DNA of 64,000 nt from an uncultured Clostridia bacterium (GTDB lineage: Bacteria; Bacillota; Clostridia; TANB77; CAG-508). Where the stretch lies: the NCBI GenBank assembly GCA_934149075.1, contig CAKPDR010000001.1:84060-148059 (forward strand), read 5' to 3'. A program made the translations under genes and the position numbers. The notes beneath the pieces are model-generated. The model made no database searches. It had not been told where the DNA came from and saw only the letters and a program-made list of their open reading frames with translations. Below, one piece after another: positions 3,503-41,072 of this stretch (its first letter is position 1; every line of letters begins with the position of its first letter).

Positions 3503-3931
3503 TTATTTGTTTTCTATCGTTATACTTTCTTCTCCATCTTTTATATTTTCTTTAAATGTTAAGTTTTGATTATCCAAGTTATTTTTATCTACTTCTATTG
3601 TATGTTCAGCTCCATCCTTTTCTATATGATATTTTTCTATTGTATGATTATTAGAATCTGTGTAAGTAGTTCCTTTTACTTCTTCTTGCTTTCCATCTTT
3701 ATCAGTAAATATAACTTGAATTGTGTCTTTTGCCTTTTCTGCTAATTCTCCATTAGTTGTTGCATTTACTGTAATAAAACTTCCTGTTAGCATTATTAGC
3801 ATAACTACCACTAATGATACAATTTGTTTTCTTTTATTTATTTTCATATTTTCCTCACTTTCTAAATTAGATATAACTACCCTGTTTCTTACACTTTCAA
3901 CAATTTTTTTATTTAATTCATTATTCACCAT
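3503..3931 (-). CDS. Putative anti-sigma factor (single-pass membrane protein) coupled to the upstream ECF sigma gene
   Basis: Overlaps the sigma gene by 11 nt. Short cytoplasmic N-terminus, one TM (IVSLVVVMLIMLTGSFITV), then an extracytoplasmic domain. Confidence 0.5.
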   Translation of the reverse strand: MVNNELNKKIVESVRNRVVISNLESEENMKINKRKQIVSLVVVMLIMLTGSFITVNATTNGELAEKAKDTIQVIFTDKDGKQEEVKGTTYTDSNNHTIEKYHIEKDGAEHTIEVDKNNLDNQNLTFKENIKDGEESITIENK

Positions 3932-4466: not shown

Positions 4467-4733
4467 TTTAGATCTAAACTCCTTTTAAAAGTACCTTCAC
4501 TTATATAATCCCATTATAACCAAAAAGGTTACAAATTTTTTCAAAAAAAATAGAGAGCTTATTTCTAATATTAGCAAATTACTTATCATACTCTAATATA
4601 TTGTAGCAGTTTCTTTACTTATTATGTAAAGTGTGCTGTACTAAATATATATGATAAAATCATATATTAGAAGACCTCGCGTTCTCACTTATACTTATTC
4701 ACCAGTAAAAAAAAATTTTTGGTGGAAAAACTT

Positions 4734-4871
4734 ATGGCAAAAAAAATGGTATGTTACAATGGCGATACTTTAGCTTATCCTAATTGTTCAGATTCTAGGG
4801 TTCTTGTTAAAGGCAATAGTGTCTATGAAATACTTACTCAAAACAGTAAGTATATTGTAACAATAAACTAA
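4734..4871 (+). CDS. Small hypothetical protein (45 aa)
   Basis: Hand-found ORF MAKKMVCYNGDTLAYPNCSDSRVLVKGNSVYEILTQNSKYIVTIN, with GGTGGA 8 nt upstream and a perfect terminator 14 nt downstream. Confidence 0.4.
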   Translation: MAKKMVCYNGDTLAYPNCSDSRVLVKGNSVYEILTQNSKYIVTIN

Positions 4872-4884
4872 ATTAACTAAAAAA

Positions 4885-4919
4885 ATACGAATTTGGTAAT
4901 TCCAAATTCGTATTTTTTA
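4885..4919. terminator. Bidirectional Rho-independent terminator
   Basis: 12-bp stem ATACGAATTTGG/CCAAATTCGTAT flanked by an A-run and a T-run. Confidence 0.75.
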
Positions 4920-4926
4920 TGTATTA

Positions 4927-5003
<77 letters not shown>

Positions 5004-5073
5004 ATTTCTTAACACCTAATTATAATAACACATATTATTGACAAAGTCAACCATTTTTTAATTTTTTTTCATA

Positions 5074-5940
5074 TTATTTTGAAATTTGATTTATGATTTC
5101 TTCTTTTTCCTCAATTGTATCTTCCAAAAGTTCAGGTTTCTTTAAATATTTTGATAACAATTTAAAAGAAAAAGCATAATAATACCCATCACAAATTCTT
5201 TCATCACCAACAAAAGCTAGCGTAATACACTTTTCTTCTTTAATTTCATCATCCTCATAAATATAGCTTTTTTTCTTTTTACCCATAGAAAAAAACATAC
5301 TTGTCGTTCCAAAATTATATATATGATGATATATACTATCAATTCCAAGAGAACCAACATTAGTTATAAAAACACTCGTATGGAATGGACTAGCATCAAT
5401 TATTTTTCTTGGTAATATTCCATGTTTATCTAAAAATACAAAAAGCTTTACAACAGCTCTAATCAATCCACTAGGAATAACATTTAAAACCGCAACTAAC
5501 TTATCTGTTTTATTTGAATTCTCAAGTTCTTTATTTTGTTCTATTGCATTATCTAGTATATCTTTTATTTCAAAAATATTCTCAGTTCCATTAAATTCTA
5601 ACTTCAATGGAGTTTCAGGACCATCATCAGTTAGGTTCTTTTTTATAACAAGCGAAACATATATTTTATCTCTTTTATATAACACTCCATTCATTGCAAA
5701 TCTATTTAAATTAGGTCTTTGACCTACAATTTTTACAATAGCAGCATATATGATATTCATATATGATAAACGTAGCCCATCTTTTGCCTTTTTCTCAATG
5801 TATTCATCTAAATTTTTTAAAGCTATGTCTTGTTTAAAATATACTTGAGAATCAGCTCTATCAAGCATTACGCAAGGCATAATTTTAAAAATTGGTGGTA
5901 AGTTTTTTATTCTTTTGCCATCTGATCTATGTCCAAACAT
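5074..5940 (-). CDS. 2-oxoacid dehydrogenase E2 catalytic-domain-like acyltransferase (stand-alone)
   Basis: The C-terminal DERICDGYYYA matches the DHRxxDG catalytic motif of the CAT/E2 acyltransferase fold. Confidence 0.55.
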   Translation of the reverse strand: MFGHRSDGKRIKNLPPIFKIMPCVMLDRADSQVYFKQDIALKNLDEYIEKKAKDGLRLSYMNIIYAAIVKIVGQRPNLNRFAMNGVLYKRDKIYVSLVIKKNLTDDGPETPLKLEFNGTENIFEIKDILDNAIEQNKELENSNKTDKLVAVLNVIPSGLIRAVVKLFVFLDKHGILPRKIIDASPFHTSVFITNVGSLGIDSIYHHIYNFGTTSMFFSMGKKKKSYIYEDDEIKEEKCITLAFVGDERICDGYYYAFSFKLLSKYLKKPELLEDTIEEKEEIINQISK

Positions 5941-5958
5941 CTTCTTTTCCCCTTTTGC

Positions 5959-6903
5959 TTACTCTATTCCCAATATTTTTGCTTCAACATTAAACATCTT
6001 GTATTTTTTAGTTTCCTCATCTAATTTAAACTCTATTAACGTATTTTCAAGACTTTCACTATTTTGTCTTAAATCTGTTGTAAAATATAACTTTATTTGA
6101 GGAATTTCTAATTTATTTTTTACTATTTCTTTAAATGTTTCAACAGTATGTTTATCATCTTCACATACAAATATTAATTGTGGTAATGCTGAAAATCCTG
6201 AATCCCCAGGAACAAAATTCTCATAAAACTCTTTATACATAGTCATTTTGTCTACAAGTTTTTTCTGCCAATCTTTTTCTCTTCTAATTACTTCAAATAA
6301 AAATGTTATTGATTTTTTATTTTTAGTAAGTTTTACAGATCCACCTGTTGCCTTAAATACTTTTCCTGACATTTTTGCATTTAAAGCAGGCTTAACAACA
6401 TAACTATCAAATGCTTTTACTTTTCTTAGATAAGCAATTAATGTTTGATTTCCTGCTAATCTTTTCTTTATCATTGCAACTGGTTTAACATTATCTGTTT
6501 GTTGCCATTTACATTCAATTTCTTTTGAAGTTAATAAATATTTTCCCATCTTTTCAAGACAATAAATTCTATATATTCCTTTACCTTCTTCAGATGTAAA
6601 ATAATATCTTGTTAAAATTTTTGATTTTACAAGTTGATCTAATTTATTATTTAATTTATCTTGTGATTTTGGATCTATTCCTTTCCACTCTAGCATTTGA
6701 TATATTTGTCTAGAAGTTATAAATTCAAATTCGTTTACTAACTCTAATATTGCAAAATGAATATCTGTTATATGTCCTATATTAATTTTATGTATAATTT
6801 GATTCATAGACACATATCCGTCTTTTCCATCAAATGTTTTTATTTCACCTTCTCTTATTGCAAATGGTGATACTTGCGCTTTGATTTGGTTATCTTCAAC
6901 CAT
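5959..6903 (-). CDS. Hypothetical protein, possibly a replication-relaxation-like winged-helix protein
   Basis: N-terminal pattern ITDIHFAILELVNEFEFITSRQIYQML...LDQLVKSKILTRYYF...IYRIYCLEKMGKYLL resembles the Replic_Relax architecture. From memory only. Confidence 0.3.
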   Translation of the reverse strand: MVEDNQIKAQVSPFAIREGEIKTFDGKDGYVSMNQIIHKINIGHITDIHFAILELVNEFEFITSRQIYQMLEWKGIDPKSQDKLNNKLDQLVKSKILTRYYFTSEEGKGIYRIYCLEKMGKYLLTSKEIECKWQQTDNVKPVAMIKKRLAGNQTLIAYLRKVKAFDSYVVKPALNAKMSGKVFKATGGSVKLTKNKKSITFLFEVIRREKDWQKKLVDKMTMYKEFYENFVPGDSGFSALPQLIFVCEDDKHTVETFKEIVKNKLEIPQIKLYFTTDLRQNSESLENTLIEFKLDEETKKYKMFNVEAKILGIE

Positions 6904-6962
6904 TTCAATCCCTCCTTATAATTTTAGTTGCTAATTATAGCATCTTTTTTACACCTAGTCTT

Positions 6963-7418
6963 TTAAACTACTATCAATTTTATTTTTTTCTTTTCTGGCA
7001 AGATCTTCTTTATGCATACATCAACTGTTTCACCATATTTTAGTTCTCTTGTATACTCTGTCATACCTACTAAATTAGGTGTTAATTCAATAAATATACC
7101 ATTTTTGTTTTTTTCTGTATCTCTTACAATTCCCTTTACTGTCATTCCTTCTTTAAAGCTTTTTATGTTATCATCCCATGTTCCTAAACAGTTTTTATAT
7201 GATAAACTTACTCTTCCAGTATTTTCGTCTACAGATTTTACCATACATTTTATCTTTTGTCCAACTTTTACTCTTTCTTCTGGTGATTTTATTCTTGCAA
7301 CTGATAAATCTTCTATAAATACAAGTCCGTCTATTCCATTATCCATTTTAATAAAAGCACCATATGGTTGTATACCTGTTACGGTTCCACCAACTATTTG
7401 TCCTTGTTCGACTTTCAT
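6963..7418 (-). CDS. S1 RNA-binding domain protein (two S1/OB repeats)
   Basis: GQIVGGTVTGIQPYGAFIKMDNGIDGLVFIEDLS plus a second repeat GMTVKGIVRD..GIFIEL. Confidence 0.8.
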   Translation of the reverse strand: MKVEQGQIVGGTVTGIQPYGAFIKMDNGIDGLVFIEDLSVARIKSPEERVKVGQKIKCMVKSVDENTGRVSLSYKNCLGTWDDNIKSFKEGMTVKGIVRDTEKNKNGIFIELTPNLVGMTEYTRELKYGETVDVCIKKILPEKKKIKLIVV

Positions 7419-7491
7419 TTTTCTTTTGCTCCTTTTTCTTTTGTTTCAACAATATTATATCTTTTCTTAAACATATTTTCAACTATTTTAA

Positions 7492-8208
7492 TTAATTTTT
7501 TAACAATTCTTCTACTTCTCTTTTTTGTAAGAATCTCCACTTGCCAAGTTCCAAATCTTTTACACCTATTTTTCCTATTTTACTTCTATGTAAAGCTAAG
7601 ACCTTTCTTCCAACCGCTTCACACATCTTTCTAACTTGTCTATTCTTTCCTTCATGAATTGTTATTTCTAATCTTGAAATATCTTTTTCTGCATCAGTTT
7701 TTAAAATCTTTACCTTTGCAGGTTTTGTCGTATAATCATCTATTTTAACACCTTTTTTTAATTGTTCAACTTCTATATTTTTAACAATTCCTTTTACAGT
7801 AACAGTATAAGTTTTTTCTATTTCGTGTTTTGGATGTGTAACCTTGTAAACAAAATCACCATCATTTGTCAATATCAATGCACCTGATGTATACATATCC
7901 AATCTTCCAACAGGTACAACCCTTTCTCTAACTTTTACTAAATCTAGCACTGTATCTCTTCCAAATTGATCATCAGCAGTTGTCACATATCCTATTGGTT
8001 TATTTAATAAAATATAGACTTGTTTAGTAACTTGTTTTACAATTTCTCCATCAAATATGACCATATCTTTGTCTGGATTTATTTTTGTTCCAAGTTCTTT
8101 CACAATTTTTCCATTAACTTGTACTTTTCCTTGTGAAATATATTCTTCACACTTTCTTCTTGAAGCAACCCCACAACTGGCTAAATATTTTTGCAATCTC
8201 TCTTCCAT
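7492..8208 (-). CDS. rluB: rRNA pseudouridine synthase, RsuA/RluB family (S4 domain plus catalytic domain)
   Basis: N-terminal S4 (RLQKYLASCGVASRRKCEEYI) and catalytic GRLDMYTSGALILTNDG. Confidence 0.85.
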   Translation of the reverse strand: MEERLQKYLASCGVASRRKCEEYISQGKVQVNGKIVKELGTKINPDKDMVIFDGEIVKQVTKQVYILLNKPIGYVTTADDQFGRDTVLDLVKVRERVVPVGRLDMYTSGALILTNDGDFVYKVTHPKHEIEKTYTVTVKGIVKNIEVEQLKKGVKIDDYTTKPAKVKILKTDAEKDISRLEITIHEGKNRQVRKMCEAVGRKVLALHRSKIGKIGVKDLELGKWRFLQKREVEELLKN

Positions 8209-8248
8209 TTTTAATCCTCTCTAAAATTTTATTCCTATTTTTTTCTTT

Positions 8249-8279
8249 GGGAAATTTTGTACCGGGTACATTTTTTCCC
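8249..8279. repeat. 31-bp palindrome, GTACCGGGTAC-core family (copy F1, imperfect)
   Basis: GGGAAATTTTGTACCGGGTACATTTTTTCCC. Outer GGGAAA/TTTCCC and inner TGTACC/GGTACA arms pair, with a 3-nt internal bubble. Confidence 0.85.
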
Positions 8280-8427
8280 AAGTACATTTTTACTTTATAG
8301 GACTGGTTCTTTTTTTATATATTTTTGCATATTATATATTAATTCCTTTTACTTTTTTAAAAGGCTTTATATAGATTCTCCGGCAAGGTTCTCTTGCCGG
8401 ATTTTATTATTTAATAATATACATCTA

Positions 8428-9339
8428 CTATGCTCTTTCATCCAGTTTTTTTAATATATCTTCAAAATAGTCTGGTAACGGAGCTTCTAGTTTCATTTCT
8501 TTTCCTGTTACAGGATGTTTAAATTCTAAACATTTTGCATGTAAACATTGTCCTATAACTCCAAATTCATTTTTTCCATTTGAATATATATAATCACCTA
8601 TTATAGGATATCCTATATGTGATAAATGTACACGAATTTGATGTGTTCTTCCTGTTTCTATATTAATTTCTAATAATGTATATTTATCATATCTTTTTAA
8701 TACTTTAATATGGGTTACTGCATTTCTTCCATTTTTATCAACAGCCATCTTTTTTCTATCTGAACGACTTCTTCCAATTGGCATATCTATAGTTGCCTCG
8801 TTTTCCTTAACAATCCCTCTAACTAAAGCAATATATGTTTTTTTTACTTCATGATTTTTTATTTGTTCACTCATATTTACATGTGCTTTATCATTTTTTG
8901 CAACTATTAATAATCCTGAAGTATCTTTATCTAATCTATGCACAATTCCAGGTCTTATCTCTCCGCCAATTCCTGATAGACTGTCTTTACATATTGCCAT
9001 TATTGCATTTACCAATGTTCCATCAGGATTTCCATTAGCAGGATGTACTACCATTCCTTTAGGTTTATTCACAACAATTATATCACTATCTTCATATATA
9101 ATGTCTATTGGTATTTCTTGTGCTTTTAATTCTATCATTTGAGCTTCCGTTTCTTCAATTATAACCATATCTCCTTCAGTAACTTTATATGCTACTTTTC
9201 GTTTTTTTCCATTAACCAATATCTTTTCTTGTTCAATTAATCTTTGTACAGCTGTTCTTGTTAAATCATTATTTTGATTTGATATATAAGTATCTAATCT
9301 TTTTCCTTGATCTTCTTGTTTAACTATATATGTTTCCAT
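8428..9339 (-). CDS. rluD: RluA/RluD family pseudouridine synthase
   Basis: S4-like N-terminus, catalytic HRLDKDTSGLL and GRTHQIRVH. Confidence 0.85.
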   Translation of the reverse strand: METYIVKQEDQGKRLDTYISNQNNDLTRTAVQRLIEQEKILVNGKKRKVAYKVTEGDMVIIEETEAQMIELKAQEIPIDIIYEDSDIIVVNKPKGMVVHPANGNPDGTLVNAIMAICKDSLSGIGGEIRPGIVHRLDKDTSGLLIVAKNDKAHVNMSEQIKNHEVKKTYIALVRGIVKENEATIDMPIGRSRSDRKKMAVDKNGRNAVTHIKVLKRYDKYTLLEINIETGRTHQIRVHLSHIGYPIIGDYIYSNGKNEFGVIGQCLHAKCLEFKHPVTGKEMKLEAPLPDYFEDILKKLDERA

Positions 9340-9354
9340 TTCTTATTCCTCTCT

Positions 9355-9385
9355 GGGACAAAATGTACCGGGTACATTTTGTCCC
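9355..9385. repeat. 31-bp perfect palindrome, same family (copy F2)
   Basis: GGGACAAAATGTACCGGGTACATTTTGTCCC. Its last base is part of the TAG stop of the 9385..10911 gene. Confidence 0.9.
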
Positions 9386-10911
9386 TATTTTGTTATTTCA
9401 TAAAACACAAAATTATCATCTTCTTTTATTAGGTTGTATCCATCTAGTTTTGTATTTTGAATAATCATATTCATTTTTGAATCTTTATATAAGATAATAT
9501 GTGTTATGTCATACTTTTTAAATATATCTTCAAACCATATATCTAAATTTGAACTTTTTATAAAGTCCATAAATATATCTCTTCCTCCATTATATTCTGG
9601 TGCATATAAATCACATCTAGAGTCAATAAATACCGGTATTCCTTTGTATAATAAATAACTTCCATAATTATATTCATTATATAATCTTACATTTTTTATA
9701 TTAATGTTGTTGTTATTAAAATATTGTATAATAAAATCACTCATTTCTACGGGGTATGATTTTTCATCTACATATTTTGCTTTAATTTTTGTTTTCACAA
9801 AATATAAACTTATTATTAAGATTAATGCTGATATCATAAATCCACCAAATAATGTTGTAAATACTTCTATAAGTTTTTCATCTACATCTTTTACTTCTTT
9901 TTTTACAAAGTCATATACTAGCCTATTCAATATAACTGAACATATTATTACAAACATTGTTGATTGTCTTTTTGAATATAGCATTAGCAATACTAATCCG
10001 CCAAGCATAAACAAATCAATTAATCTAATTTTAATATCTGTAAATGCCAATATTGCAATAAATATTATTAACACACATAGTATTTCTGCATTTTTTATTA
10101 ATGTCATTGGTAAATGTTCATTTATGTTTTGTGTTGTATTTCCTTGCATTGTCTTGATTAAATATGTATATGGCGTAGTTCCTAAAGGTGTTAAAAATCC
10201 AGTCAAAGTGCAGATTATCATTACTACTATTAGATATTTTACTCCATCTCTTTTTGTTAATGAGATTTTCTTTCCTTCTTTGAATTGTTTTCCATATTTT
10301 TTTGCAAATTTTTCTTCTATAATAATTACTATATATTCTGCTATATATGGTAAGTATAAAATAAACATAAATGGCCAAACAGCAACATGTAAATTTGCTA
10401 TTAATATTGATATTGCAATTAATCCAATTCCATATCTCTTTTTACTCGTATTGGCTAATTGCTCCATCAAATATATTTGTAGAGAAAATAATATAAATGT
10501 TACAAGTTGTGCTCTTGCTGCAATGTAATCTCTTAACATATACATTGCTCCAATTGTAACTACAAATGATACAACTTTATTTTTTACTAATTTAGAGTTT
10601 GTTTCGTATATCGTTATTCCTAATAATGCTGAAAATATACATGTTGATATATATATTCCAACAATTCCTCCTATTGAATATATTAAATATATTATTACAT
10701 CATATAACCAATGTGGATATGTATATTCTAAATCCTGATGCCACGAAAACGGGTCTATCATGTCTATTCCTTTGTTTTCTATTATGTGTTCTCCTATTTT
10801 TATTGTGTAAAATGTATCATTTTGTAAAGTCTTTGGTGTTATACTTATACAAAATATTGCAATTAAAATTATTGCCATAATTTCGAAATAAATTGTTTTT
10901 TTATTTTTCAT
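9385..10911 (-). CDS. Large polytopic membrane protein (508 aa), function unknown
   Basis: ORF track. More than 10 hydrophobic helices followed by a soluble C-terminal domain. Confidence 0.6.
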   Translation of the reverse strand: MKNKKTIYFEIMAIILIAIFCISITPKTLQNDTFYTIKIGEHIIENKGIDMIDPFSWHQDLEYTYPHWLYDVIIYLIYSIGGIVGIYISTCIFSALLGITIYETNSKLVKNKVVSFVVTIGAMYMLRDYIAARAQLVTFILFSLQIYLMEQLANTSKKRYGIGLIAISILIANLHVAVWPFMFILYLPYIAEYIVIIIEEKFAKKYGKQFKEGKKISLTKRDGVKYLIVVMIICTLTGFLTPLGTTPYTYLIKTMQGNTTQNINEHLPMTLIKNAEILCVLIIFIAILAFTDIKIRLIDLFMLGGLVLLMLYSKRQSTMFVIICSVILNRLVYDFVKKEVKDVDEKLIEVFTTLFGGFMISALILIISLYFVKTKIKAKYVDEKSYPVEMSDFIIQYFNNNNINIKNVRLYNEYNYGSYLLYKGIPVFIDSRCDLYAPEYNGGRDIFMDFIKSSNLDIWFEDIFKKYDITHIILYKDSKMNMIIQNTKLDGYNLIKEDDNFVFYEITK

Positions 10912-11027
10912 ATGTTTTTATACGGCCTATAAATATATAAACGTCCGCTTCTCCTTTCCTTGTTATAATATCCATATTATAACAGAAAAAATCCAAAAAG
11001 GCTAGGCTTTTTGGATTTTGTTTTATA

Positions 11028-11729
11028 TTAAACAGCTTCTTTACTTTCAGTTTCTTCTTTGTTTTCTGTTCCTTCTTCATTTATTAGTTCTAAACTACAA
11101 ATTGAAACCTCATAAGCTACTTTCATTTCTGATGTTCCATCTTCATATTTCTTTTCATATTGTCTTGATTGAACTCTTCCTACTATTTTTACTTGAGCTC
11201 CTACTTCTAGATTTTGACAAAATCTTGCATTTCTTCCCCATGCTATTGTTGGAATATAATCTGATTTATTATATGCTCTGTTTACTGCTAATAATAAATC
11301 TGCAATTTCTCTTCCAAATGGTGTTTGTCTGTAAATTGGTTTTTTACATACAAATCCGATAAGTACAACTTCGTTTGTTGTTTCTTCTTTTCTTACTATG
11401 TCACTTTCTTCTTGTTCTTCAACTTCTTTAAGTTCTTCAACATCTTTTGCAAATACTGTTAATATTAATTTGTTTCTTTCATTTTCATAACTATTATATG
11501 ATCTGAATTGTCCTTTAATTAATAATCTTGTACCTTCTTGTAACATTTCATCAGTTATTAATCTTTCTGATATTGTTATTGGTATGATGTCTGCATTTCC
11601 ACTTAAGCGTGGTATTGATAAGTTGAATGTATAAAATTTCTCTCCGTAAATTTCATGGCTAAATCTTTTTTCGCCTGTAACTTTTCCTACTAATGTTAAG
11701 TAGTTGTTTTCTAAATAATTTGTATCCAA
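11028..11729 (-). CDS. SSB-like protein with two OB-fold-like halves and an acidic tail
   Basis: Two repeats of an N..L.G.V......T..G......F.L pattern, IVGRVQSRQYEKK, and an acidic C-terminus EEGTENKEETESKEAV. Confidence 0.45.
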   Translation of the reverse strand: MDTNYLENNYLTLVGKVTGEKRFSHEIYGEKFYTFNLSIPRLSGNADIIPITISERLITDEMLQEGTRLLIKGQFRSYNSYENERNKLILTVFAKDVEELKEVEEQEESDIVRKEETTNEVVLIGFVCKKPIYRQTPFGREIADLLLAVNRAYNKSDYIPTIAWGRNARFCQNLEVGAQVKIVGRVQSRQYEKKYEDGTSEMKVAYEVSICSLELINEEGTENKEETESKEAV

Positions 11730-11909
11730 TTTTATTTCCTCCTTATTTTTTTCTTTATCAATTGTAAATTTCTCTTCTTGCTTCTCTTTTTTTAAAATTT
11801 TCTACAGTTTTTATTATACTACACTTTTTTGGTTTTGTCTACATAAAAAGTTAATTTTTTCTATTTTTTTTCATATTTTTGCTCAAATATTAGCATTTTT
11901 TGTACTTTT

Positions 11910-12422
11910 TTATAAATTATGCAGTTCTTTTATTATAAAAATTACTAATTTAGTATATATTTTTTTATCGTTTTCTCTAATTAGCTTTATTTCTTTTTCT
12001 TGACTTTCTATTATTTCTCCATTCAATTTTTCTATATCTCTCTGTAAACATACTATTATCTTTTCTTCTTTTACACTTGATATAGATATCGTCGCTTTTG
12101 TGTTAAAACCAAATGTTATTACTTTTATTGGCTTTTCTATGTTCATTTTTTTCAAAAATTCTATTTTGATATCTCCATTTAATACTAAATACTTTGTTTT
12201 TGATATTATCTCATTCATATATTTATATTCATCTGCTTCTAATTTTATATCTTCTAGTACAATTATTTCTTCAAAACAAATATTCTTAACATTTTTTATA
12301 GATTCTTTTGTTATTTCTACAATTTCAATATCACTCTCTTTCAGATTCTTTTTTATAATCTGATTATCTCTTTTTTTCGCAATTATTCCAATTAATGGCA
12401 TAACTCTCTCCTTTGTTGTCAT
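11910..12422 (-). CDS. Hypothetical protein (170 aa)
   Basis: ORF track only. Confidence 0.4.
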   Translation of the reverse strand: MTTKERVMPLIGIIAKKRDNQIIKKNLKESDIEIVEITKESIKNVKNICFEEIIVLEDIKLEADEYKYMNEIISKTKYLVLNGDIKIEFLKKMNIEKPIKVITFGFNTKATISISSVKEEKIIVCLQRDIEKLNGEIIESQEKEIKLIRENDKKIYTKLVIFIIKELHNL

Positions 12423-12459
12423 TATTTCCTAAACTTTTTTTTTTATACTTGTATGCACA

Positions 12460-13221
12460 CTAATTGGAAATCTGTGTTCCATTATTATTAATAGTGTAAT
12501 TATTTTGATATATTAAATCTGAGACAGTAGTAACCTTAAGTCCTTTTGATTTTATATTTTTAATAAGCATATCTAAACTATCAGCTGTATGCTTTGTTCC
12601 ATTATGACTTAAAATTATTGCACCATTATCAAGTTTATTTTTTAGTCTATTCCACATTTCTTCCCCTGTTAATCCTTTATAATCTAATGTGTCCAAATTC
12701 CATTGTATTGTGAAATAGCCATTTTCTTGTGCAGTTTTTATTACTGTGTCATTATATTCTCCATATGGCGCTCTGTATAATGTAGTTTTACTTCCAGTTA
12801 TTTTTTCTAACTTATTTACACTTAACTGTATTTCTTCTAAATTTTTTTCTGCTGATAAATTATTTACATGTGGATGTGTATTACTGTGGCTTCCTATTTC
12901 ATGACCGGCTTCATTTATCTTTTTTACCGCTTCTGGATATTTGTCTGCCCAATCTCCTACTATAAAAAATGTTATATGTACATCATTATTTTTTAATGTT
13001 TCTAATATACTGTCTATGTCGTCTGCATTCCATGCACAATTCATTGTTAATGCAACTTTGTTTTCTTCTGTTTGTACATTATATATAGGTAAATATTTTT
13101 CCTGTGCAAACGTTGGCACTGCACTAATATCTTTTATATTTGCTAGTGCAATTAATACTGCAACTGTTAATATTGACACAGCATATGTTTGTATTTTTTC
13201 TTTATTGAATATTAAGAACAT
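12460..13221 (-). CDS. Polysaccharide deacetylase (NodB homology domain), PdaB-like
   Basis: TFFIVGDWADKYPEAVKKINEAGHEIGSHSNTHPH. An N-terminal signal/anchor is present. Confidence 0.85.
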   Translation of the reverse strand: MFLIFNKEKIQTYAVSILTVAVLIALANIKDISAVPTFAQEKYLPIYNVQTEENKVALTMNCAWNADDIDSILETLKNNDVHITFFIVGDWADKYPEAVKKINEAGHEIGSHSNTHPHVNNLSAEKNLEEIQLSVNKLEKITGSKTTLYRAPYGEYNDTVIKTAQENGYFTIQWNLDTLDYKGLTGEEMWNRLKNKLDNGAIILSHNGTKHTADSLDMLIKNIKSKGLKVTTVSDLIYQNNYTINNNGTQISN

Positions 13222-13277
13222 AAAAAAACCTCCAAATTAAAACATGATACTAATTATATTTAATATTATGTTTTATT
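13193..13277. repeat. Left copy of an approximately 83-bp direct repeat, covering the first 9 codons plus the upstream region of the deacetylase gene
   Basis: ATTTTTTCTTTATTGAATATTAAGAACATAAAAAAACCTCCAAATTAAAACATGATACTAATTATATTTAATATTATGTTTTATT aligns with 15886..15968, with a few mismatches and indels. Confidence 0.85.
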
Positions 13278-13365
13278 CCGAAGATTATGATTTTATATTT
13301 ATTAATTATTAATAGGGAACCTTATTAAAAGTTCCCTATTTTTGCAGTCTATATAATATCAGATA

Positions 13366-14244
13366 TTATTTTTGAAGTTCAATAATTCCTACTCCAAATT
13401 GACTACAGTGATTGTTGTCTGATTTTACTGGTTTAGTTTGTGCAGCAGGCCATAATTTACCTTCATTTATATAACTTCCCCCTACACGCGAAAAACCTGT
13501 CTTAGATAATTCATCTTCAACAATTTTAATGGTATTACCAATCAAACCATATACTCCTCCGAATTCTCTTTTTCCAGTTCGTTCTTTTCCATAATCAGAA
13601 GCTCCAGTAGTATTACTATAATGTCCTATTTCTGATGAATCCACTACAATTTCTTCAAAAGTAGCAATTCCATCTTTTAACCATCTTAAAAGTAACAGGA
13701 AGTATGTGGTCTTTGAACACATTTTACTTTCATTTCTTGGCAAGTAATCCATTATACTTTTCTTCCAAGTTTCACAGCCCCAACCTGTAAAAGGTGCTTT
13801 GTTCTCAACAATCTTTAAACCATCAACTGCATCAAGTGACGGTTCATAAGCTGAAATCCAGCAAAAACCTTTTTGTGGTTTATTGGCTAGTGCCTCTAAA
13901 ACATTGTCTCTAAAACTTTTCTGCTTGCTTGTTTTAAAATTTCTTTTCTTACCTTTTAAATCATACATCAAATCATCTTCTGTCAAATCTCTCGTATAAA
14001 AATGCATGAATACATCATTCATTTTTACTTTACAATACCAGTATAAGCTGCCCTCTTTCCGATAAACCTCTCCACCTCCTACAAGTGGCTCTGGTTTTGG
14101 TATAAAATTATTCTCTACTATATCATTTTTCGGAATATCAGCCTCATCTGTGTATGCAATTCCAATTCTTCCATCATCCATTACACTTACCCGTTGGAAT
14201 CTAGCGCCTTTGGGTAATTCGACATACAACATTTTTTCGTTCAT
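13366..14244 (-). CDS. Hypothetical protein, modular family member A. It joins a shared N-terminal module to a C-terminal domain with weak FGE-sulfatase/SUMF1-like motif spacing.
   Basis: ORF track. Strong SD AAGGAGGA. The C-terminal half is homologous to 23462..24355 (DSSEIGHYSNT against DSTEIGHYFNT). See findings. Confidence 0.7.
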   Translation of the reverse strand: MNEKMLYVELPKGARFQRVSVMDDGRIGIAYTDEADIPKNDIVENNFIPKPEPLVGGGEVYRKEGSLYWYCKVKMNDVFMHFYTRDLTEDDLMYDLKGKKRNFKTSKQKSFRDNVLEALANKPQKGFCWISAYEPSLDAVDGLKIVENKAPFTGWGCETWKKSIMDYLPRNESKMCSKTTYFLLLLRWLKDGIATFEEIVVDSSEIGHYSNTTGASDYGKERTGKREFGGVYGLIGNTIKIVEDELSKTGFSRVGGSYINEGKLWPAAQTKPVKSDNNHCSQFGVGIIELQK

Positions 14245-14303
14245 AAAGTAATCCTCCTTTTGTTTTGAAAAAATATATTTATTTATAAAAAATTAACATA
14301 ATT

Positions 14304-14332
14304 ATTGTATCATGAATTTATTTATTATGCAA
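14304..14332 (-). promoter_or_regulatory. Putative sigma-A promoter for 13366..14244
   Basis: Minus strand reads TTGCAT, a 17-nt spacer, then TACAAT. The same block is duplicated at 15649..15677. Confidence 0.45.
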
Positions 14333-14458
14333 CAGCTATGGTGAAAAAATTTATTTTATAAAAAAACTATCTATAAAATCATAGATAGTTTTTTTACAAG
14401 TATTGTAGTTTTTAGAGAGTTTTATTATTTTTTGTGTTCCTCACAATTTAACCAAAAG

Positions 14459-15588
14459 TTAGATTTTTTTATTTTCTAAAATAGTCTTCGTTTTCTCCTC
14501 CATAATATTTAAATAATCTTCATTTTCCTTTGATACCTCTGGTTCACCTGGTATAGCACTAAGCATTCGATCTACTTTTCGTAATATATGATAACACTTT
14601 TTAGCATATTCTAGCTCTAATACTGGTAATTTACAAAGATTTTCATCACATTTTCTTACATCTTTAAGATCCAATTGAAGAATTTGTAGCATATTTATCA
14701 GCCACATTTTTTCCTCTTTATATTTTTCCTTTATATCACAGTCTCTAATTAATCCCCATATAGTTTTATAATTGAGTTTATTGTGTAAAAAGGATTTCTG
14801 GAACATAAAAGCTGCTTGCTCTTTCTTATCATGCTTAAAATAAAGCATTCCAAGTTCATACTCACCAATACTTTTGCATGCATCTACATTTAGATTTTTT
14901 ACATGGTCATGCTGAACAACTATTGATATATTCTCAAAGTCTTGATAAATATTATATATCTCTGCTAACATACTCCTAAGAATATGAAATGTATAACCTG
15001 TCCTCATATTCAATGTATCTGCAAGATTAGCTAATTTAATAGCACTGTAATTCATTGGGAGATTTAATACTTCACATAGTTCGTCCTCCATTCTCTTACA
15101 GTATATTCTTGCATATTCAAAATGTTCGAATCCCATTCTTTCATCAGCAGTATATTCTTCAAACTCATTTAAAGCTTTTTTCCAAATTTCCTTAGATACT
15201 TTAGCCTTGCATATTTTGGTGTAAGCTCTCTCTTCTTTCGAAAACTTTTGTAACGAAATCTCATGAACCAAACCACATTTACAATATTTTTCCATCATTG
15301 TCATTGATATAAAAAATTGCATCAAAATTATTTTTTCTTTTTTCGGTTTATTCTCCAGTGCCTCTAAAGCATTGGCTTTAAACATTTCTTGCTTCATCTT
15401 AAGATACTCATTTTCTGTTTTTTCAGAATTATAACAAAAGTCTTTTTCTGTTAAATCCTCTACATACAAATACATAAAAGTATCTCCATTTTTAAGCGTA
15501 CAATACCAATTTCTCCGTTCTTTGCTACACTTACCCGTCGAAATTTCGAACCGCTAGGTAATTTTACGTACATAGTTTTTTCTTTCAT
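14459..15588 (-). pseudogene. Modular family member B. It has the same N-terminal module but a TPR-like C-terminal domain. The 5' end is frameshifted with an internal deletion.
   Basis: The ATG at 15588 with SD AAGGAGAA encodes MKEKTMYVKLPSGSKFRRVSVAKNGEIGIV, against MNEKMLYVELPKGARFQRVSVMDDGRIGIA in member A, then hits a stop. The track ORF (14459..15475) continues in another frame with ..NWYCTLKNGDTFMYLYVEDLTEKDF, against LYWYCKVKMNDVFMHFYTRDLTEDDL in member A. Confidence 0.6.
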
Positions 15589-15648
15589 AAAGTATTTCTC
15601 CTTTCTGCATAAAAATATACTATAGTACATCTACATATTAACATAATT

Positions 15649-15677
15649 ATTGTATCGTAAATTTATTTATTATGCAA
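15649..15677 (-). promoter_or_regulatory. Duplicate of the TTGCAT-17-TACAAT promoter, upstream of member B
   Basis: Near-identical 41-nt block ATTAACATAATTATTGTATC(A/G)T(G/A)AATTTATTTATTATGCAA at 14292..14332 and 15637..15677. Confidence 0.45.
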
Positions 15678-15885
15678 AACTCTACATTATAAAATTCTCC
15701 AAGCATTCCAGTAGCATTTTCTTTTTAATTCCAAAAATATTATATTTTCCAAAACATATAATAAATCTTTTTTTATATCTTGTAAGTTTTTTGCTCAAAT
15801 GAGCAAAAACTTTTAGTTTTGCCTGAGTTTTTGCTCAAATTTAAGAAGTTTTATATAACAAACTTATAATTAATTTTCATGTTAT

Positions 15886-15968
15886 ATTTTTTCTTTATTG
15901 AATATTAAGAACAAAAAAACTCCAAATTATAACATTATACTAATTATATTAATATTATGTTTTTATTT
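15886..15968. repeat. Right copy of the approximately 83-bp direct repeat (dead-end copy of the deacetylase 5' end)
   Basis: Same sequence as 13193..13277, but the ATG is lost (AAGAACAAAAAAA) and the reading frame stops after about 10 codons. Confidence 0.85.
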
Positions 15969-15981
15969 AGAGTTTATTATT

Positions 15982-16728
15982 TTATATTATTTTCCCATAA
16001 AATATTTTTAATATTTCTTTATACATAGGAAATTTTATTTTTTCAATTTCTTCTATAGTTTTCTCTACATCATATTCAATTCTCAAATGTTGAAATTCTA
16101 CTTTTCCACTGTTAATATCTAATATCCCTGCATTAGCTATATTGTTACTTATAGGACAACCTAAAGCCCCTGGATTTATATACCATTTATTTTCCATATT
16201 ATTTACGCTGTAAGCATGTGTATGGCCATATATAAATATGTCAGCATTTATTTTATCAAACATATCTTGATTTTCAATGATAGTAGGCTTTTTAATATGT
16301 TTTTTATATTTTCCTTCTTCATTCTCTGGATAATGTACTATATATAATTTTTTATTTTCTATTTCAATACTTTTTTCTACGGGTAATTCTTTTATAAATT
16401 TTATTGATTCTTCACTTAACATACTTTGCGTCCATTTATGATTTTGAATTTTGTCAAAGCTCATTTTTCTTTTATCGTCATGGACCTCTTTAGGTAATCC
16501 GTCTGTAAAATACTTTTCATGATTTCCTCTTACCGATATTAAGCATTCCCTCTTTTTTATTAACATTTGTACTGCTTCTTCTGGGTTTGGTCCTATCCCT
16601 ATTATATCTCCACAACATATTATTTTATCAACTTTTATTTTATTAAATTCTTTCAATACTGCTTTTAAAGCCTGAACATTACTATGAATATCTGATATTA
16701 TACCTATTTTCATCTTTAATCTCTCCAA
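15982..16728 (-). CDS. Metallophosphoesterase, YfcE/MJ0936-like
   Basis: Motifs DIHSN, GDIIGIG, GNHE and GHTH in canonical order. Confidence 0.8.
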   Translation of the reverse strand: MERLKMKIGIISDIHSNVQALKAVLKEFNKIKVDKIICCGDIIGIGPNPEEAVQMLIKKRECLISVRGNHEKYFTDGLPKEVHDDKRKMSFDKIQNHKWTQSMLSEESIKFIKELPVEKSIEIENKKLYIVHYPENEEGKYKKHIKKPTIIENQDMFDKINADIFIYGHTHAYSVNNMENKWYINPGALGCPISNNIANAGILDINSGKVEFQHLRIEYDVEKTIEEIEKIKFPMYKEILKIFYGKII

Positions 16729-17274: not shown

Positions 17275-18705
17275 TTATTGTCTATACGATATTATTTTAA
17301 ACTCATTTCTCTTATCAAATTTAAAAATTAATACTTTTGTGTAATTATCTTTGTTAGGTTCACTTAGTTCATTAATAATAAAACTTGCTTGATATTTCTT
17401 CAATGTATCAAATGTATTCATAAATCCCATGCCTGTACCACCTTCATTTGCATGTGTGGTAATTGGTTCCTTCCCTAGCTTTGCTAATGTTTCTTTCTCA
17501 AATTCTATACCAGAATCATATATGTACAGACTGTAAATGCCATCAATCTCGCCAAGCCTTACTAAAATACTTCTATTTATATTGTCTGTATGATTTATTG
17601 CAATAATCGCATCTTTTATATGGTCTGCTAACAATATTTCTAAATCTTCTTTTGATATTAGATTATTTACCATATAGTGTATGTTTCCTGATATTTGCAA
17701 TTCAAATTCTATTTTATTTTTAATACATTCTGATTGCATATATTCTAACATATCATCTATATTAGGAATATCAGTTTTGCTCAATTTGGTTACAACCTTA
17801 TCTTTATATAGATCTTTTTCTATTTCTTTTATTCTATCTTGTACTTCTCCTGCATCTTCTTTACTTATTTCTACATTTGTTAATAATTGTTGTATTTTAT
17901 ATTCTAACGCTTTCTGCTTATGTGCTATTGAATGACTTTTCTTACTTAATCCCAAATTTTCCTCTTCTACCTGCTTTAATTCACTTTTTGTTTTTTCTAG
18001 TTCTTCTTTTGTTTCATTTAAGTCTTGAATTAGTAATTTTTGTTTGTAATAAATTTGTAATGATTTTTTGATTGTTGTAAACATTATAAAAATCGCTGTT
18101 ATAATTCCTAAAGCTAATTCTCTAGCAAGTGCTACATCCGTATGTATTAAAATAGCTATTAAGAAAAGAATAATTACTCCAATATTCAATACCAGTATGT
18201 CTAAATATTCATTTTGATTATCACCTTTCAAAAATGAAAATCCTTTTTTAAATCTTTTTATCTTAAATAATGTATATAATAAAATAACATGACTTATTAA
18301 TATAATTATCAAATTTATATAATCATTATTCAAATCAGTACATATACTAACTATAAAACTTATAGCTAAAGTCATACATAAAATAGTATAATTAATAGCA
18401 TGTGATATAATGGTCGCAATTATTGTTTTAGTAATCTTATTAGTTGAAAATATTATGCTAATTATCAAAACTTGACTTATTATGCTTATAAATATATTCA
18501 CATAATTTTTTATTATAGAATACGGAATTCCAAAAATTAGAATTATAATACTTTTCTTTATCAATTCTGAATTTATTTCTATCTTTTTACCAATAATCTT
18601 AAAATTGCTATAGAAAATAAAAAATATCAAAAATATTGTTTTTATAATATTTATATTTAACTCAACATCACTTTGTAAATAAACTGAATCAACATCGCCA
18701 AACAT
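17275..18705 (-). CDS. Orphan membrane sensor kinase-like protein (about 6-7 TM, coiled coil, C-terminal GHKL ATPase), AgrC/LytS-like architecture
   Basis: N-terminal 210 aa are polytopic. Coiled coil QDLNETKEELEKTKSELKQVEEEN. Candidate H in KKSHSIAHKQKA. G-box EGGTGMGFMNTFDTLKKY. There is no adjacent response regulator. Confidence 0.65.
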   Translation of the reverse strand: MFGDVDSVYLQSDVELNINIIKTIFLIFFIFYSNFKIIGKKIEINSELIKKSIIILIFGIPYSIIKNYVNIFISIISQVLIISIIFSTNKITKTIIATIISHAINYTILCMTLAISFIVSICTDLNNDYINLIIILISHVILLYTLFKIKRFKKGFSFLKGDNQNEYLDILVLNIGVIILFLIAILIHTDVALARELALGIITAIFIMFTTIKKSLQIYYKQKLLIQDLNETKEELEKTKSELKQVEEENLGLSKKSHSIAHKQKALEYKIQQLLTNVEISKEDAGEVQDRIKEIEKDLYKDKVVTKLSKTDIPNIDDMLEYMQSECIKNKIEFELQISGNIHYMVNNLISKEDLEILLADHIKDAIIAINHTDNINRSILVRLGEIDGIYSLYIYDSGIEFEKETLAKLGKEPITTHANEGGTGMGFMNTFDTLKKYQASFIINELSEPNKDNYTKVLIFKFDKRNEFKIISYRQ

Positions 18706-23461: not shown

Positions 23462-24355
23462 TCATTTTGCAATAGGGCACTTATAGCCATACTCTGCAAA
23501 ACTTCCACTTGCAACGCAAACTTTACTATATGTCTCATCTTCCGCGAAAATTTTGCGAACATTTGCAAGACCACACTTACCTGCTACTTTTCTACAACCT
23601 GCGATTTCAAGCGTATCCTGTGCATATTTAGTATTGAAATAATGACCAATTTCTGTAGAATCACAACATATGGCTTTCACAGCTTCATCCTGTTCCCAGC
23701 CCTCCATTTTCATATGCTCAATTAATGTCGCAAGGAATAAAACATAATGATGTTTAGTTCCTAATTTTAAATTATTTTTTTTTGCCAACTGCTTGAGCTC
23801 GTTAAATGATAAGTCAGTTGTTGGACCACATCCTGCACTGAAAATTGGCTTTCCTTTATCATCGATTGTCATGTCGTAAACTGGTACTTCAAAGCTTTTT
23901 ACTCCTGCACTGATAGCTTCGTTAAGCTTATCCAGAAATTCCTTTACTGCAGGCGCTAATAACCAACAGCTTTTAAACAGTTCCTTATAAATATAACTGT
24001 TAGACCCTTCTACATGAATCGTTTCAATTCCTTTGGTAAGATGTGTTTCAGTAAAAATCCTTTCTTTCATAATTTTCCAAAAACACTCATCTACATCTTC
24101 AGGTGTTTCTAAATTTTTTTTCAAGATCTCTTTTACAGATTCCGTTACCTGCGATTTCATTGAAATGACGAGTTCTCCTTTTTCGTCTTCTCTGACGAAA
24201 AATTCCTTGCTATTGTGTATATGCTTTGTTTCTTCGTCTATTGCACTATAAATCATTTGTGCAACTTTCTTGGCTTTTCTTCTTCCTAAATATTCACAAA
24301 GAATATCCCGGATTTTAGTTTCGTTCATAATAGTAGTTGTTGAATTTTTCATCAT
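23462..24355 (-). CDS. Modular family member C. It has a different N-terminus but the same C-terminal domain as 13366..14244. Its 3' end is probably frameshifted.
   Basis: Homology blocks: HYVLFLATLIEHMKMEG against TYFLLLLRWLKDG, DSTEIGHYFNT against DSSEIGHYSNT, GLANVRKIFAEDE against GLIGNTIKIVEDE. A 20-codon ORF (23403..23465) overlaps the stop as ATGA and encodes the missing ..YGVGWFVF end. Confidence 0.65.
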   Translation of the reverse strand: MMKNSTTTIMNETKIRDILCEYLGRRKAKKVAQMIYSAIDEETKHIHNSKEFFVREDEKGELVISMKSQVTESVKEILKKNLETPEDVDECFWKIMKERIFTETHLTKGIETIHVEGSNSYIYKELFKSCWLLAPAVKEFLDKLNEAISAGVKSFEVPVYDMTIDDKGKPIFSAGCGPTTDLSFNELKQLAKKNNLKLGTKHHYVLFLATLIEHMKMEGWEQDEAVKAICCDSTEIGHYFNTKYAQDTLEIAGCRKVAGKCGLANVRKIFAEDETYSKVCVASGSFAEYGYKCPIAK

Positions 24356-39702: not shown

Positions 39703-39989
39703 TATGTTCCTCCCTTTTTATAAAAATTTACAATTTTACCTCTTATTTTATATCATATACATCATACTAATTCAACATAAAAATACCAATTTTTTGCATT
39801 TTTGTAATACTTTTGTAACAAAAATGTAACAGAAATGTAATACACTTTTATGTCAAAATATTGTATAATGAATTTGACGAAATATATTGTAAAAAAATAT
39901 TTTTTGCATATTAATTGCATAAAATGCAATTTTTTATTTAATTAGAAAGGTGTTTAAACGCTTTTCTTGTAGCTAAAATGGAGGATACA

Positions 39990-41072
39990 ATGAGCATCGA
40001 ATCTGATTTAAGAAAAGATGGAATTCGAGTAGTTGACATACTTGACACAATGTCTGTAAATCGTATCGCTCATAATATTGCAACAAAGCTTTGCGAAACA
40101 TTTCCAGAACTTTGTTTCAATGAAAGTGATTTATTTACAAAACTTTCTAGATTAGGTATGTATAGAGCCACAATGCCAGATGGTATGGCTGAGGCTAATT
40201 ACTTTTATAAAAACACATCTATATATTTTAATGCCAAAATTGCTTACGAAGATTTAGAAGAATTTGCAATTCATGAATGTATTCACTATATTCAAGAAGT
40301 AAAAGATAAAAAGAACAATCTTGTTAGAATGGGCTTATGTAATTTTGATAATTTTAAAATTGTCGGTATGGGGTTAAATGAGGCTGCCGTTCAATATATT
40401 ACATCAAAAATTATTAATATCGAAAAAGACTATGTTAAATATTTTGGTGTTTCTTTTAGAACAATTAGCCCTTCATATTATCCTTTAGAGTGTAATTTAA
40501 TTGAACAAATGGCTTATATTACGGGCGAAATCGTTTTATATGATAGCACATTTACAAGTAATGATAAATTTAAAAACACTTTTGTCAATTTAACTTCTGA
40601 AAAAACTTATGATGATATAGAATATTATGTTGATCGTATTCTTGAATTAGAAGAAAACATTATAAAATTAAATAATAAGTCTTCTGCTTATGATGAAAGA
40701 AATAAAACAGTTGATAAAATTGTTTCAAAAATTAACGATTCAAAAAATAAAATTGCTGAATATTATGAAAAAGCTCAAAACCTAATTATAAAAAATTATT
40801 TTGATAAATCATTCAAACTAATAAACAATTTAGAAGAACTTGATAATTATAGAAGAAAATTGGATCATTATAGAGAGTTAGTCGGCCGTACTGACAACTA
40901 TACTTTCTTTGATGATTATTATACAGAAAAGATGTCTCAATTAGAACATAAATCAAATATACTTGAAAATGGAGGCATAGAAACCGCTCTTGAATACAAG
41001 AAACCAAGCAAATTTGTCTCTTGGCTAAGAGCAATCAAAAACTTCGTAACAGGAGAAAAAATAAATAATTAA
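39990..41072 (+). CDS. Hypothetical protein with an HExxH motif (possible zinc metallopeptidase-like) and a coiled-coil C-terminal half
   Basis: FAIHECIHYIQ. The likely start is the second ATG (MSIESDL), 6 nt after GGAGGA. Confidence 0.45.
   Translation: MSIESDLRKDGIRVVDILDTMSVNRIAHNIATKLCETFPELCFNESDLFTKLSRLGMYRATMPDGMAEANYFYKNTSIYFNAKIAYEDLEEFAIHECIHYIQEVKDKKNNLVRMGLCNFDNFKIVGMGLNEAAVQYITSKIINIEKDYVKYFGVSFRTISPSYYPLECNLIEQMAYITGEIVLYDSTFTSNDKFKNTFVNLTSEKTYDDIEYYVDRILELEENIIKLNNKSSAYDERNKTVDKIVSKINDSKNKIAEYYEKAQNLIIKNYFDKSFKLINNLEELDNYRRKLDHYRELVGRTDNYTFFDDYYTEKMSQLEHKSNILENGGIETALEYKKPSKFVSWLRAIKNFVTGEKINN

Follow-up and report, generated by a model that had tools for sequence, protein, structure and literature searches.

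A 2.7-kb block between yfcE and a PdaB-like deacetylase gene in an uncultured gut Clostridia bacterium is probably the fossil of a serine-recombinase element

Introduction

Several sporulation genes of spore-formers are interrupted by gene-intervening elements that are excised by large serine recombinases, namely skin (recombinase SpoIVCA) in sigK, SPbeta (SprA) in spsM and gin (GirC) in gerE (PMC5595907, PMC4191935, PMC5499854). The locus described here belongs to an uncultured gut Clostridia bacterium and was analysed within a 64-kb stretch of its DNA (hereafter the window), in which a 2.7-kb block containing two genes, geneA and geneB, lies between the gene of a PdaB-like polysaccharide deacetylase and its upstream neighbour yfcE, and is bounded on either side by a copy of the promoter and 5′ end of the deacetylase gene. 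Two general properties of recombination bear on such an arrangement. Serine recombinases produce no duplication of their target, and integration via homology leaves direct repeats, as in Campbell-type integration, in homology-facilitated illegitimate recombination (HFIR) and in the duplicated gene ends (for example tRNA 3′ ends) found at the borders of integrative elements.

An original prediction, made from the letters of the window, had taken the block for a discrete cassette that was inserted, or amplified, between a gene and its promoter by a duplication-generating mechanism. We propose that the block is a fossil rather than an active cassette: probably, a deacetylase copy split by an element recombined with a locus that held the cassette together with an intact deacetylase gene, and deletions between short repeats followed.

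Results

Two copies of the deacetylase promoter and 5′ end

The deacetylase gene (12460..13221, minus strand, like all genes between 9 and 19 kb) is intact and encodes 253 amino acids with a Polysacc_deac_1 domain (Pfam PF01522, E 6e-34). Its best NCBIfam match is TIGR02764, the sporulation deacetylase PdaB, with 192 bits, under the 237-bit equivalog cutoff. The upstream neighbour encodes a YfcE-family metallophosphoesterase (15982..16713, minus strand; Pfam PF12850, NCBIfam TIGR00040).

Between the two genes, blastn aligns 13189-13299 with 15882-15988 at 87.5% identity (112 columns, 8 mismatches, 4 gaps, E 3e-32), and megablast widens the pair to 13185-13303 and 15879-15991. The local alignment score of the pair is 83, compared with 22 ± 3 for 2000 shuffles, and the repeat occurs in the 64-kb window in these two copies only. 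The direct repeats that had been predicted are real, but their length is ~110 bp and not ~83 bp, made up of ~80 nt upstream, the Shine-Dalgarno (SD) sequence and 12-13 codons of the deacetylase gene. The left block is thus the deacetylase 5′ end as had been stated, although it holds more than the 9 codons and ~55 nt of upstream DNA first assigned to it.

The left copy (13185..13303, minus strand), with the conserved deacetylase promoter module, the SD sequence GGAGG, the ATG and the first 12-13 codons, is the functional one and is the orthologue of the single deacetylase promoter region in the loci L002, L004 and L102 of our comparison. The right copy (15879..15991, minus strand) begins at the yfcE stop codon, in the native position, and is decayed: GGAGG is reduced to GGAG, the ATG is replaced by TTG, and after 10 codons the frame runs into a stop at codon 11, in agreement with the original reading of a lost ATG and an early end of the frame. 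Judging from these signals, it is presumably the left copy that drives the deacetylase today, while the right copy appears to have no gene to serve. The right copy is nearest to the window's own left copy (104/111) and not to the promoters of other species, and both copies carry lineage-specific TTC codons; the duplication is therefore lineage-specific.

Metagenome assemblies can in general contain a duplicated read overlap or a collapsed repeat, a case for which the original prediction had allowed. Here such an artefact has a negligible probability, since the same arrangement, including the frameshift of geneB described below, recurs base for base in >20 independent assemblies, from different studies and assemblers, that hold an identical deacetylase or YfcE protein; this recurrence excludes an assembly artefact. 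Moreover, the two copies are only 87.5% identical and differ by indels as well.

Elements at codon 64 of the deacetylase gene in relatives

In one relative, L101 (region 2598-11300), an element of 8.4 kb interrupts the deacetylase gene at codon 64. The 5′ part of the gene ends at 2798 (attL GTGCATGG|TAACAATTAC...) and the 3′ part resumes at ~11227 (attR ...GGAACTGCTAC|TGGAATGCAGATG). A large serine recombinase gene adjoins attR, and the deduced attP arms are inverted repeats, that is, the attP is palindromic, with the core TGG. The cargo consists of a complete diversity-generating retroelement (DGR) along with RepA_N, NTP_transf_2, DUF3990 and DUF3791 genes.

Recombinases of the same family (66-96% identical) adjoin residue ~61 of the deacetylase in L044, L111, L113, L114, L117, L118 and L119, with varying cargo and with element sizes from ~2.8 kb, the minimal element of L114, to >8 kb. 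In L044 the relevant stretch is 6631-8001, and the element of L118 contains a geneA-like gene and the recombinase without a reverse transcriptase (RT). L112, in which the deacetylase is cut 25 nt after attR, was considered as a parallel and discarded as uninformative, its contig being chimeric with GC-rich DNA. From attL and attR of L101, an unoccupied attB is deduced within the functional deacetylase gene of the window (13018-13041; AATTGTGCA TGG AATGCAGACGAC).

Recombinase tail and attR-like scar in the spacer

The AT-rich spacer next to the right copy contains two segments that resemble the right end of these elements. Directly after the right repeat starts GAAAATTAATTATAAGTTTGTTATATAA (15851..15878, minus strand), the 3′ remnant of a large serine recombinase gene, which reads (N)MKINYKFVI-stop in frame. 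Full recombinase genes are present in L101, L044 and L111-L119, and the window keeps only the last 9 codons and the stop. The C-termini of the recombinases follow the pattern KINYKF[VAT][VI]-stop in L101, L044 and L111-L118 and read KIYYKFSE-stop in L119, the most divergent one; the KINYKFVI-stop of the remnant matches eight of these C-termini, and a blastn match to L118 extends over 42 nt at 85.7% (E 1e-6). The right copy meets the recombinase tail at an AACAT microhomology. It follows that the inner boundary of the repeat is a deletion junction, and that the upstream copy of the deacetylase gene formerly extended to codon 65 or further.

A hairpin (15788..15838, minus strand; TTGAGCAAAAA and TTTTTGCTCA motifs), which folds with -18.4 kcal/mol (z -3.5), begins 13 nt past the recombinase stop and is likely the terminator of the lost recombinase gene. 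Its arms are the TTTTGCTCAAAT motifs that the original prediction had noticed in the spacer, which are indeed present and now find their place just downstream of the recombinase stop. In a sister haplotype (H3, see below) one hairpin arm is lost by a 40-nt deletion between direct repeats. A third TTGAGCAAAAA copy lies elsewhere in the window, at 11876-11886 (minus strand), just downstream of the stop codon of hyp170; it may be a regulatory or terminator motif in common use or a match by chance.

The second segment (15703..15727, minus strand; TAAAAAGAAAATGCTAC TGG AATGC) is an attR-like scar, in which the inner part of the P arm is followed by the crossover core TGG and by 5 nt that match deacetylase codons 64-65. 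It matches the attR of L101 at 21/25 positions, the last 14 nt being exact and spanning the crossover, and the corresponding scar of H3 matches the attR of L117 at 21/22. ACTGGAATGC is found once in the window. Tail and scar are colinear with the right end of the L101 element, with a spacing of 158 nt as compared with 183 nt, and the joint chance expectation of recombinase tail and attR core is ~6e-5 per window. With attL deleted, what is left in the window is one attR-like scar and a host-gene stump. Taken together, these junctions identify the right copy as the apparent stump of a deacetylase copy that had been split by an element. An alternative assignment of the scar to an attP junction between tandem elements was rejected, as there is no similarity to the left end of the L101 element (P′ arm) and the 5 nt after TGG are those of the deacetylase side.

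It might be argued that the tail and the scar are chance matches and that the repeat came from a simple local duplication or from slippage. At 28 nt and 25 nt the matches are short, the DNA has 27% GC, and the spacer yields many chance matches of similar E-value. However, chance would have to account for two colinear matches to the functional right end of an element whose target is the deacetylase gene itself, for a frame and stop that are kept, for the joint expectation given above and for the agreement of H3 with the attR of another member of the family. An independent case from another species also argues against it: in L038 (1886-2243), a yfcE 3′ remnant, a terminator hairpin and an N-terminal recombinase remnant (residues 33-71, 74% identical) lie just upstream of an intact deacetylase gene, in what appears to be an independent scar of the same kind. 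We therefore regard chance resemblance as improbable. The absence of an integrase that had been predicted for the block holds for intact genes but not for the spacer, with its 9-codon serine recombinase tail and attR-like site. An integron-type cassette was set aside as well, given that no integron integrase was seen near the block, with no search having been aimed at attC or attI.

geneA and the DGR-target family

geneA (13366..14244, minus strand) is intact and encodes 292 amino acids, with the N-domain of its family followed by a C-type-lectin-like C-domain whose variable region (VR) equivalent lies at ~13369-13500. Searches of Pfam and NCBIfam gave no match for the protein, including its ~120-aa N-terminal domain. 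Its 93 homologues share a hypervariable C-terminal stretch between a conserved GG and the motif VGLLELKK, and two of them lie in complete DGRs. One of these, P0004 of L101, is ~50% identical to geneA, and after it come bAvd and a reverse transcriptase (RVT_1); the last 124 nt of P0004 are repeated after the RT, and 16/16 mismatches between VR and template repeat (TR) fall at TR adenines. The other, P0017, belongs to the same target-bAvd-RT operon in L110, with 23 adenine-specific TR/VR mismatches.

The AlphaFold2 (AF2) model of geneA has a predicted local distance difference test (pLDDT) score of 88, and its top fold matches in the PDB are TvpA (2y3c, prob 0.91) and TaqVP (5vf4, prob 0.98), with E only ~3e-3; the next matches are FGE-like enzymes. 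The model thus gives geneA a predicted C-type-lectin or FGE-like fold with the variable residues at its C-terminus. A hairpin (AATAGGGAAC-N9-GTTCCCTATT; 13311..13340, minus strand) lies 25 nt past the geneA stop and is part of the geneA module; a hairpin is found at the same place after every family member (L101, L110, L102, L006, L108 and L109), with stems that differ in sequence yet stay self-complementary (as judged by eye, the pairs being uncounted). It would serve as a terminator and/or as the post-VR hairpin typical of DGR targets. The occurrence of the family in DGR operons, the hypervariable C-terminus, the hairpin and the TvpA/TaqVP fold lead us to assign geneA to the DGR-type variable proteins.

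A retroelement that could act on geneA was not detected in the window. On neither strand of the 64 kb does any 60-120-nt part of the geneA 3′ end have a counterpart of 68% identity or more, as would be expected of a TR, and tblastn with the RT, bAvd and recombinase of L101 against the window gave no match. The VR-equivalent region (13369-13500) is identical in 20/20 conspecific loci, with no ongoing diversification between strains. With no RT or TR within 64 kb and an invariant VR, geneA is called an orphan, that is, on present sequence evidence, an orphan DGR-type C-lectin variable protein. A DGR elsewhere in the genome might still act on it in trans.

Upstream of geneA lies a promoter block (14292..14332, minus strand) with the promoter-like hexamers TTGCAT-N18-TACAAT, which is partly kept upstream of the L101 and L006 homologues. 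It is identical at 39/41 positions to the promoter block of geneB (15637..15677, minus strand), the same module, as had been predicted for both enclosed genes. With this block and the hairpin, geneA would have a promoter and terminator of its own.

Apart from geneA, a 297-aa open reading frame (ORF) at 23462-24355 (minus strand) of the window has no family match and is distantly similar to the middle of the C-lectin-like domain of geneA (31% over 109 aa, E 1e-7); it stops short of the VR-equivalent region, and its surroundings show no TR-like repeat.

geneB is a deletion chimera

geneB (14459..15588, minus strand), composed of the ORFs 15460..15588 and 14459..15475, is a pseudogene. Over the first ~100 codons its DNA is 96-99% identical to that of P0067/P0072, a target gene that sister haplotypes keep intact, and at ~15334-15344 this N-domain is fused to the C-terminal two-thirds of a second gene, unrelated and 443/444 aa long. 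A second deletion, of 88 nt, at ~15500-15510 between 11-nt ATTGGTATTGT repeats (seen as an alignment gap), accounts for the frameshift. An intact version of geneB is present in L191-L193, and geneB′ is intact in L102 as well. Pfam and NCBIfam gave no match for geneB or for the 444-aa protein of L102. Past the end of geneB, the inverted repeat I7 (14356..14399), with 19-nt arms that are 95% complementary and flanked by A/T runs, forms a bidirectional terminator-like hairpin. The two tandem paralogous genes of the original prediction are therefore paralogous over the N-terminal ~100 codons only, and the second of them is, as read from the two deletions, a frameshifted chimera. Homology places geneA and the N-terminal part of geneB among the putative DGR targets carried by elements of the kind seen in the relatives.

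Members of the family also occur on their own. Solitary genes are found in L108 (7001-7873), between def and fmt, and in L109 (7001-7936), after ruvB, with no RT nearby; in L006 (8859-10900) a geneB-type gene with a promoter block 89% identical follows directly after the deacetylase stop. We observed in addition 7-nt tandem arrays (GGAAGTC / CTCTGAC) at 6212-6414 of L108, and transposase-like ORFs after the geneB-type gene of L006, where the following 6 kb contain neither hyp170 nor SSB.

Three haplotypes and the neighbouring loci

The lineage of the window is represented by three haplotypes, which differ by deletions only. H1 is that of the window. H2 (L102/L090) has lost the right repeat through a deletion that runs from inside yfcE, the 3′ end of which is gone, to the start of geneB′; it keeps both geneB′ and the 444-aa gene intact, and a 116-nt remnant of geneA. 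H3 (L191-193) retains the right repeat and the spacer (less 40 nt), together with undamaged copies of geneB′ and the 443-aa gene; at the place of geneA ~630 nt are left, as in L102 (unaligned). The junctions of these deletions lie at short repeats, and they point to an apparent erosion of the block by deletions between such repeats. From the comparison of H1, H2 and H3, the ancestor had the order yfcE, right copy, spacer, geneB′, 444-aa gene, geneA, left copy with the deacetylase gene.

Recombination is also visible in the present population. In 7/20 conspecific loci a tract with 7-8% divergence covers hyp170 and the deacetylase gene (window 11500-13207), and its edge is sharp at 13207/13208, inside the left repeat, whereas the cassette and the yfcE side are near-identical across strains (1 SNP, or single-nucleotide polymorphism, in 3.6 kb among the 20 loci). 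Homologous recombination with divergent alleles thus ends inside the left copy today, a point in favour of the recombination that we propose.

Among 80 related species, the downstream order deacetylase, hyp170, SSB is kept in nearly all, although hyp170 is missing in a few and some contigs end early; the exception is L006. The upstream side of the deacetylase gene is a breakpoint. Most close relatives (L001, L002, L004, L006, L007 and L012) have there a homologue of the window ORF 39978..41072 (plus strand), which marks window positions 13222-39977 (~26.7 kb) as lineage-variable. yfcE is directly upstream of the deacetylase gene only in L003, L077, L063 and L040 among the related species, and in L003 the distance is 155 bp, with a single promoter copy. 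The enclosed DNA had been predicted to be an accessory insertion, here placed between yfcE and the deacetylase gene, and this is borne out by its absence in most related species, by the single copy in L003 and by the different erosion of the sister haplotypes. The empty site that the original prediction proposed to look for exists as the single-copy yfcE-deacetylase junction of that other species, L003, but no single-copy empty site was found within the species itself, the contigs shown for an identical deacetylase or YfcE protein being all occupied or deletion derivatives.

These comparisons bear directly on the cassette model, in which a discrete unit of two genes separates a gene from its promoter by insertion or amplification and duplicates ~80-110 bp of its target. 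Direct repeats that flank accessory genes, each with its own repeated promoter block, are what such a model would lead one to expect, and no intact recombinase is present in the window. On the other hand, the solitary genes of the family (L105, L108 and L109) and the L006 copy by the deacetylase gene are without flanking repeats, no direct repeats of at least 25 nt bracketing the family genes of L105, L108, L109, L006 and L102. The right repeat abuts the recombinase remnant and attR scar and not the cassette, and its boundary at codon 13 is a microhomology deletion junction. Furthermore, no empty or excised form occurs in >20 conspecific assemblies, and the contents of the haplotypes differ by deletions only. 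A duplication-generating cassette is consequently very improbable. Target-site duplication in general is unlikely, considering that other solitary genes have no repeats, that serine recombinases duplicate nothing and that the cassette lies beyond attR. A tandem duplication followed by deletions, starting from an L006-like order with the cassette downstream of the deacetylase gene, was likewise discarded, for it needs at least three extra events and leaves the spacer unexplained.

The variable 26.7 kb includes genes for GH77, an alpha-amylase, a P-type ATPase, an ABC/FtsX transporter, a two-component system and a NUDIX protein, and no obvious mobility genes were noticed in it. It contains a 458-aa protein (26311-27687, minus strand) with an ADP-ribosyltransferase exoenzyme domain (PF03496, E 8e-15), encoded beside a response regulator/histidine kinase pair and an FtsX/ABC transporter, and a 476-aa membrane protein (17275-18705, minus strand) with a weak HATPase_c match. 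The latter is split or truncated in several conspecific strains (L084, L094 and L098; forms of 224+226, 41+366 and 434 aa), and its gene seems to be decaying in the population.

Discussion

How did two copies of the promoter and 5′ end come to lie around the block? We infer a single recombination as the account with the fewest events. In the ancestor, the deacetylase gene adjacent to yfcE would have been split by a serine-recombinase element. The recombination would then have linked this split locus, at a point 8 nt past the crossover in attR, with a haplotype that had two DGR-type target genes, the 444-aa gene, the promoter and an intact deacetylase gene. Such an event would be homologous on one side and illegitimate on the other, of the HFIR type; Campbell integration of an aberrantly excised circle via the deacetylase 5′ homology would be an equivalent route. 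The outcome would be two promoter/5′-end copies around the element and the cassette, with an uninterrupted deacetylase gene restored, which would be advantageous if the recombinase had decayed. A microhomology deletion between codon 13 and the recombinase tail would afterwards have removed the element body, and further short-repeat deletions would have given rise to the three extant haplotypes (window; L102; L191-193).

An alternative interpretation is that the duplication came first: the cassette came with, or caused, a partial copy of the promoter and at least 70 codons, and the element later entered the decoy attB of this copy and decayed there. The same anatomy is predicted. An insertion in a redundant copy would be neutral, which suits the complete decay of the element, and the unoccupied attB of the functional copy as well as the closeness of the right copy to the window's own left copy are in line with this order of events. 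However, the original duplication stays unexplained, the part of the decoy that lay downstream of attR must have been deleted precisely to the edge of the cassette, and the adjacency of the right copy to yfcE looks native, in which case the cassette and the second copy would still have been inserted downstream by recombination. For these reasons we consider a duplication that preceded the element unlikely.

Several observations weigh against the proposed recombination of an element-split copy with a cassette locus. No intermediate with a full element between both copies was seen in any locus compared, and the data fit both sequences of events, with the element preceding a rescue or the duplication preceding the element. 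At the scar, the identity as attR, that is, as the deacetylase side, rests on the 5 nt past the TGG core; the outer half of the P arm cannot be made out, and 23 nt at 15680-15702 are unexplained. In addition, the recombinase ORF seems to be frameshifted after the catalytic serine in L044, L111-L114 and L118, by one inserted base between the catalytic-serine motif (GLYLRFSRDDE, in another frame) and GTSESIINQ, ~60-100 nt upstream of the called start, while it is in frame in L101, L116, L117 and L119. The shifted genes may be pseudogenes, the elements being immobilised, or may be subject to recoding. The fossil nature of the block nevertheless remains, in our judgement, the probable reading.

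A wider proposal can be put forward only tentatively. Codon 64 of the deacetylase gene might be the dedicated attachment site of undescribed small gene-intervening elements with serine recombinases in uncultured gut Clostridia, ferrying DGRs and variable-protein genes, and the window might record how a host escaped by regaining the promoter and 5′ end of the split gene, the leftover hypervariable-protein genes becoming domesticated as fixed genes of the chromosome. In the literature on serine-recombinase intervening elements of sporulation genes and on DGRs, we found neither a deacetylase target nor DGR cargo, the primary papers on other known elements not being covered by this survey. A conserved serine-recombinase site in a sporulation-type deacetylase gene of the relatives, together with DGR cargo, would extend the list of gene-intervening elements of spore-formers. 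The feature of the window itself is, in this reading, a composite fossil of known processes, and the main interest lies in the element family of the relatives.

For the annotation of the locus, the 292-aa "hypothetical" protein can be named as a DGR-type C-lectin variable protein (orphan), and the neighbouring ORFs as a pseudogene. The odd repeat and the AT-rich spacer are explained as the scar of an element, which makes a new insertion mechanism unnecessary, and the comparison with the relatives provides a specific path along which DGR target genes end up stranded in chromosomes.

Compared with known systems, the locus has counterparts in three groups. First, like skin, SPbeta and gin, the elements of the relatives have a large serine recombinase at one end, inside a sporulation-type ORF and at the same codon, with a 3-nt att core and a palindromic attP; like gin, some of them are small and non-phage. 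Different from skin, SPbeta and gin, their target is a deacetylase gene and their cargo a DGR or its target gene, their excision is putative, and several of their recombinases seem frameshifted; the window holds only a scar. Second, geneA resembles the DGR variable proteins of Bordetella phage (Mtd), Treponema (TvpA, 2Y3C) and Thermus (TaqVP, 5VF4) in its predicted fold, in a C-terminal VR that ends in a conserved motif and in the downstream hairpin, and its relatives belong to target-Avd-RT-TR operons with adenine-specific VR/TR differences, as in the Mtd, TvpA and TaqVP systems. Unlike those proteins, geneA of the window has no RT, Avd or TR within 64 kb, its VR is the same in all strains, and its N-domain is unmatched in Pfam and NCBIfam. 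Third, like the repeats left by integration via homology, the two copies are imperfect duplicates of a gene end with accessory DNA between them, of which one completes the gene and the other is orphaned. In contrast to those repeats, it is the 5′ end and promoter that are duplicated here, at 87.5% identity and with no recombinase acting on them, and the orphan was truncated by a later deletion.

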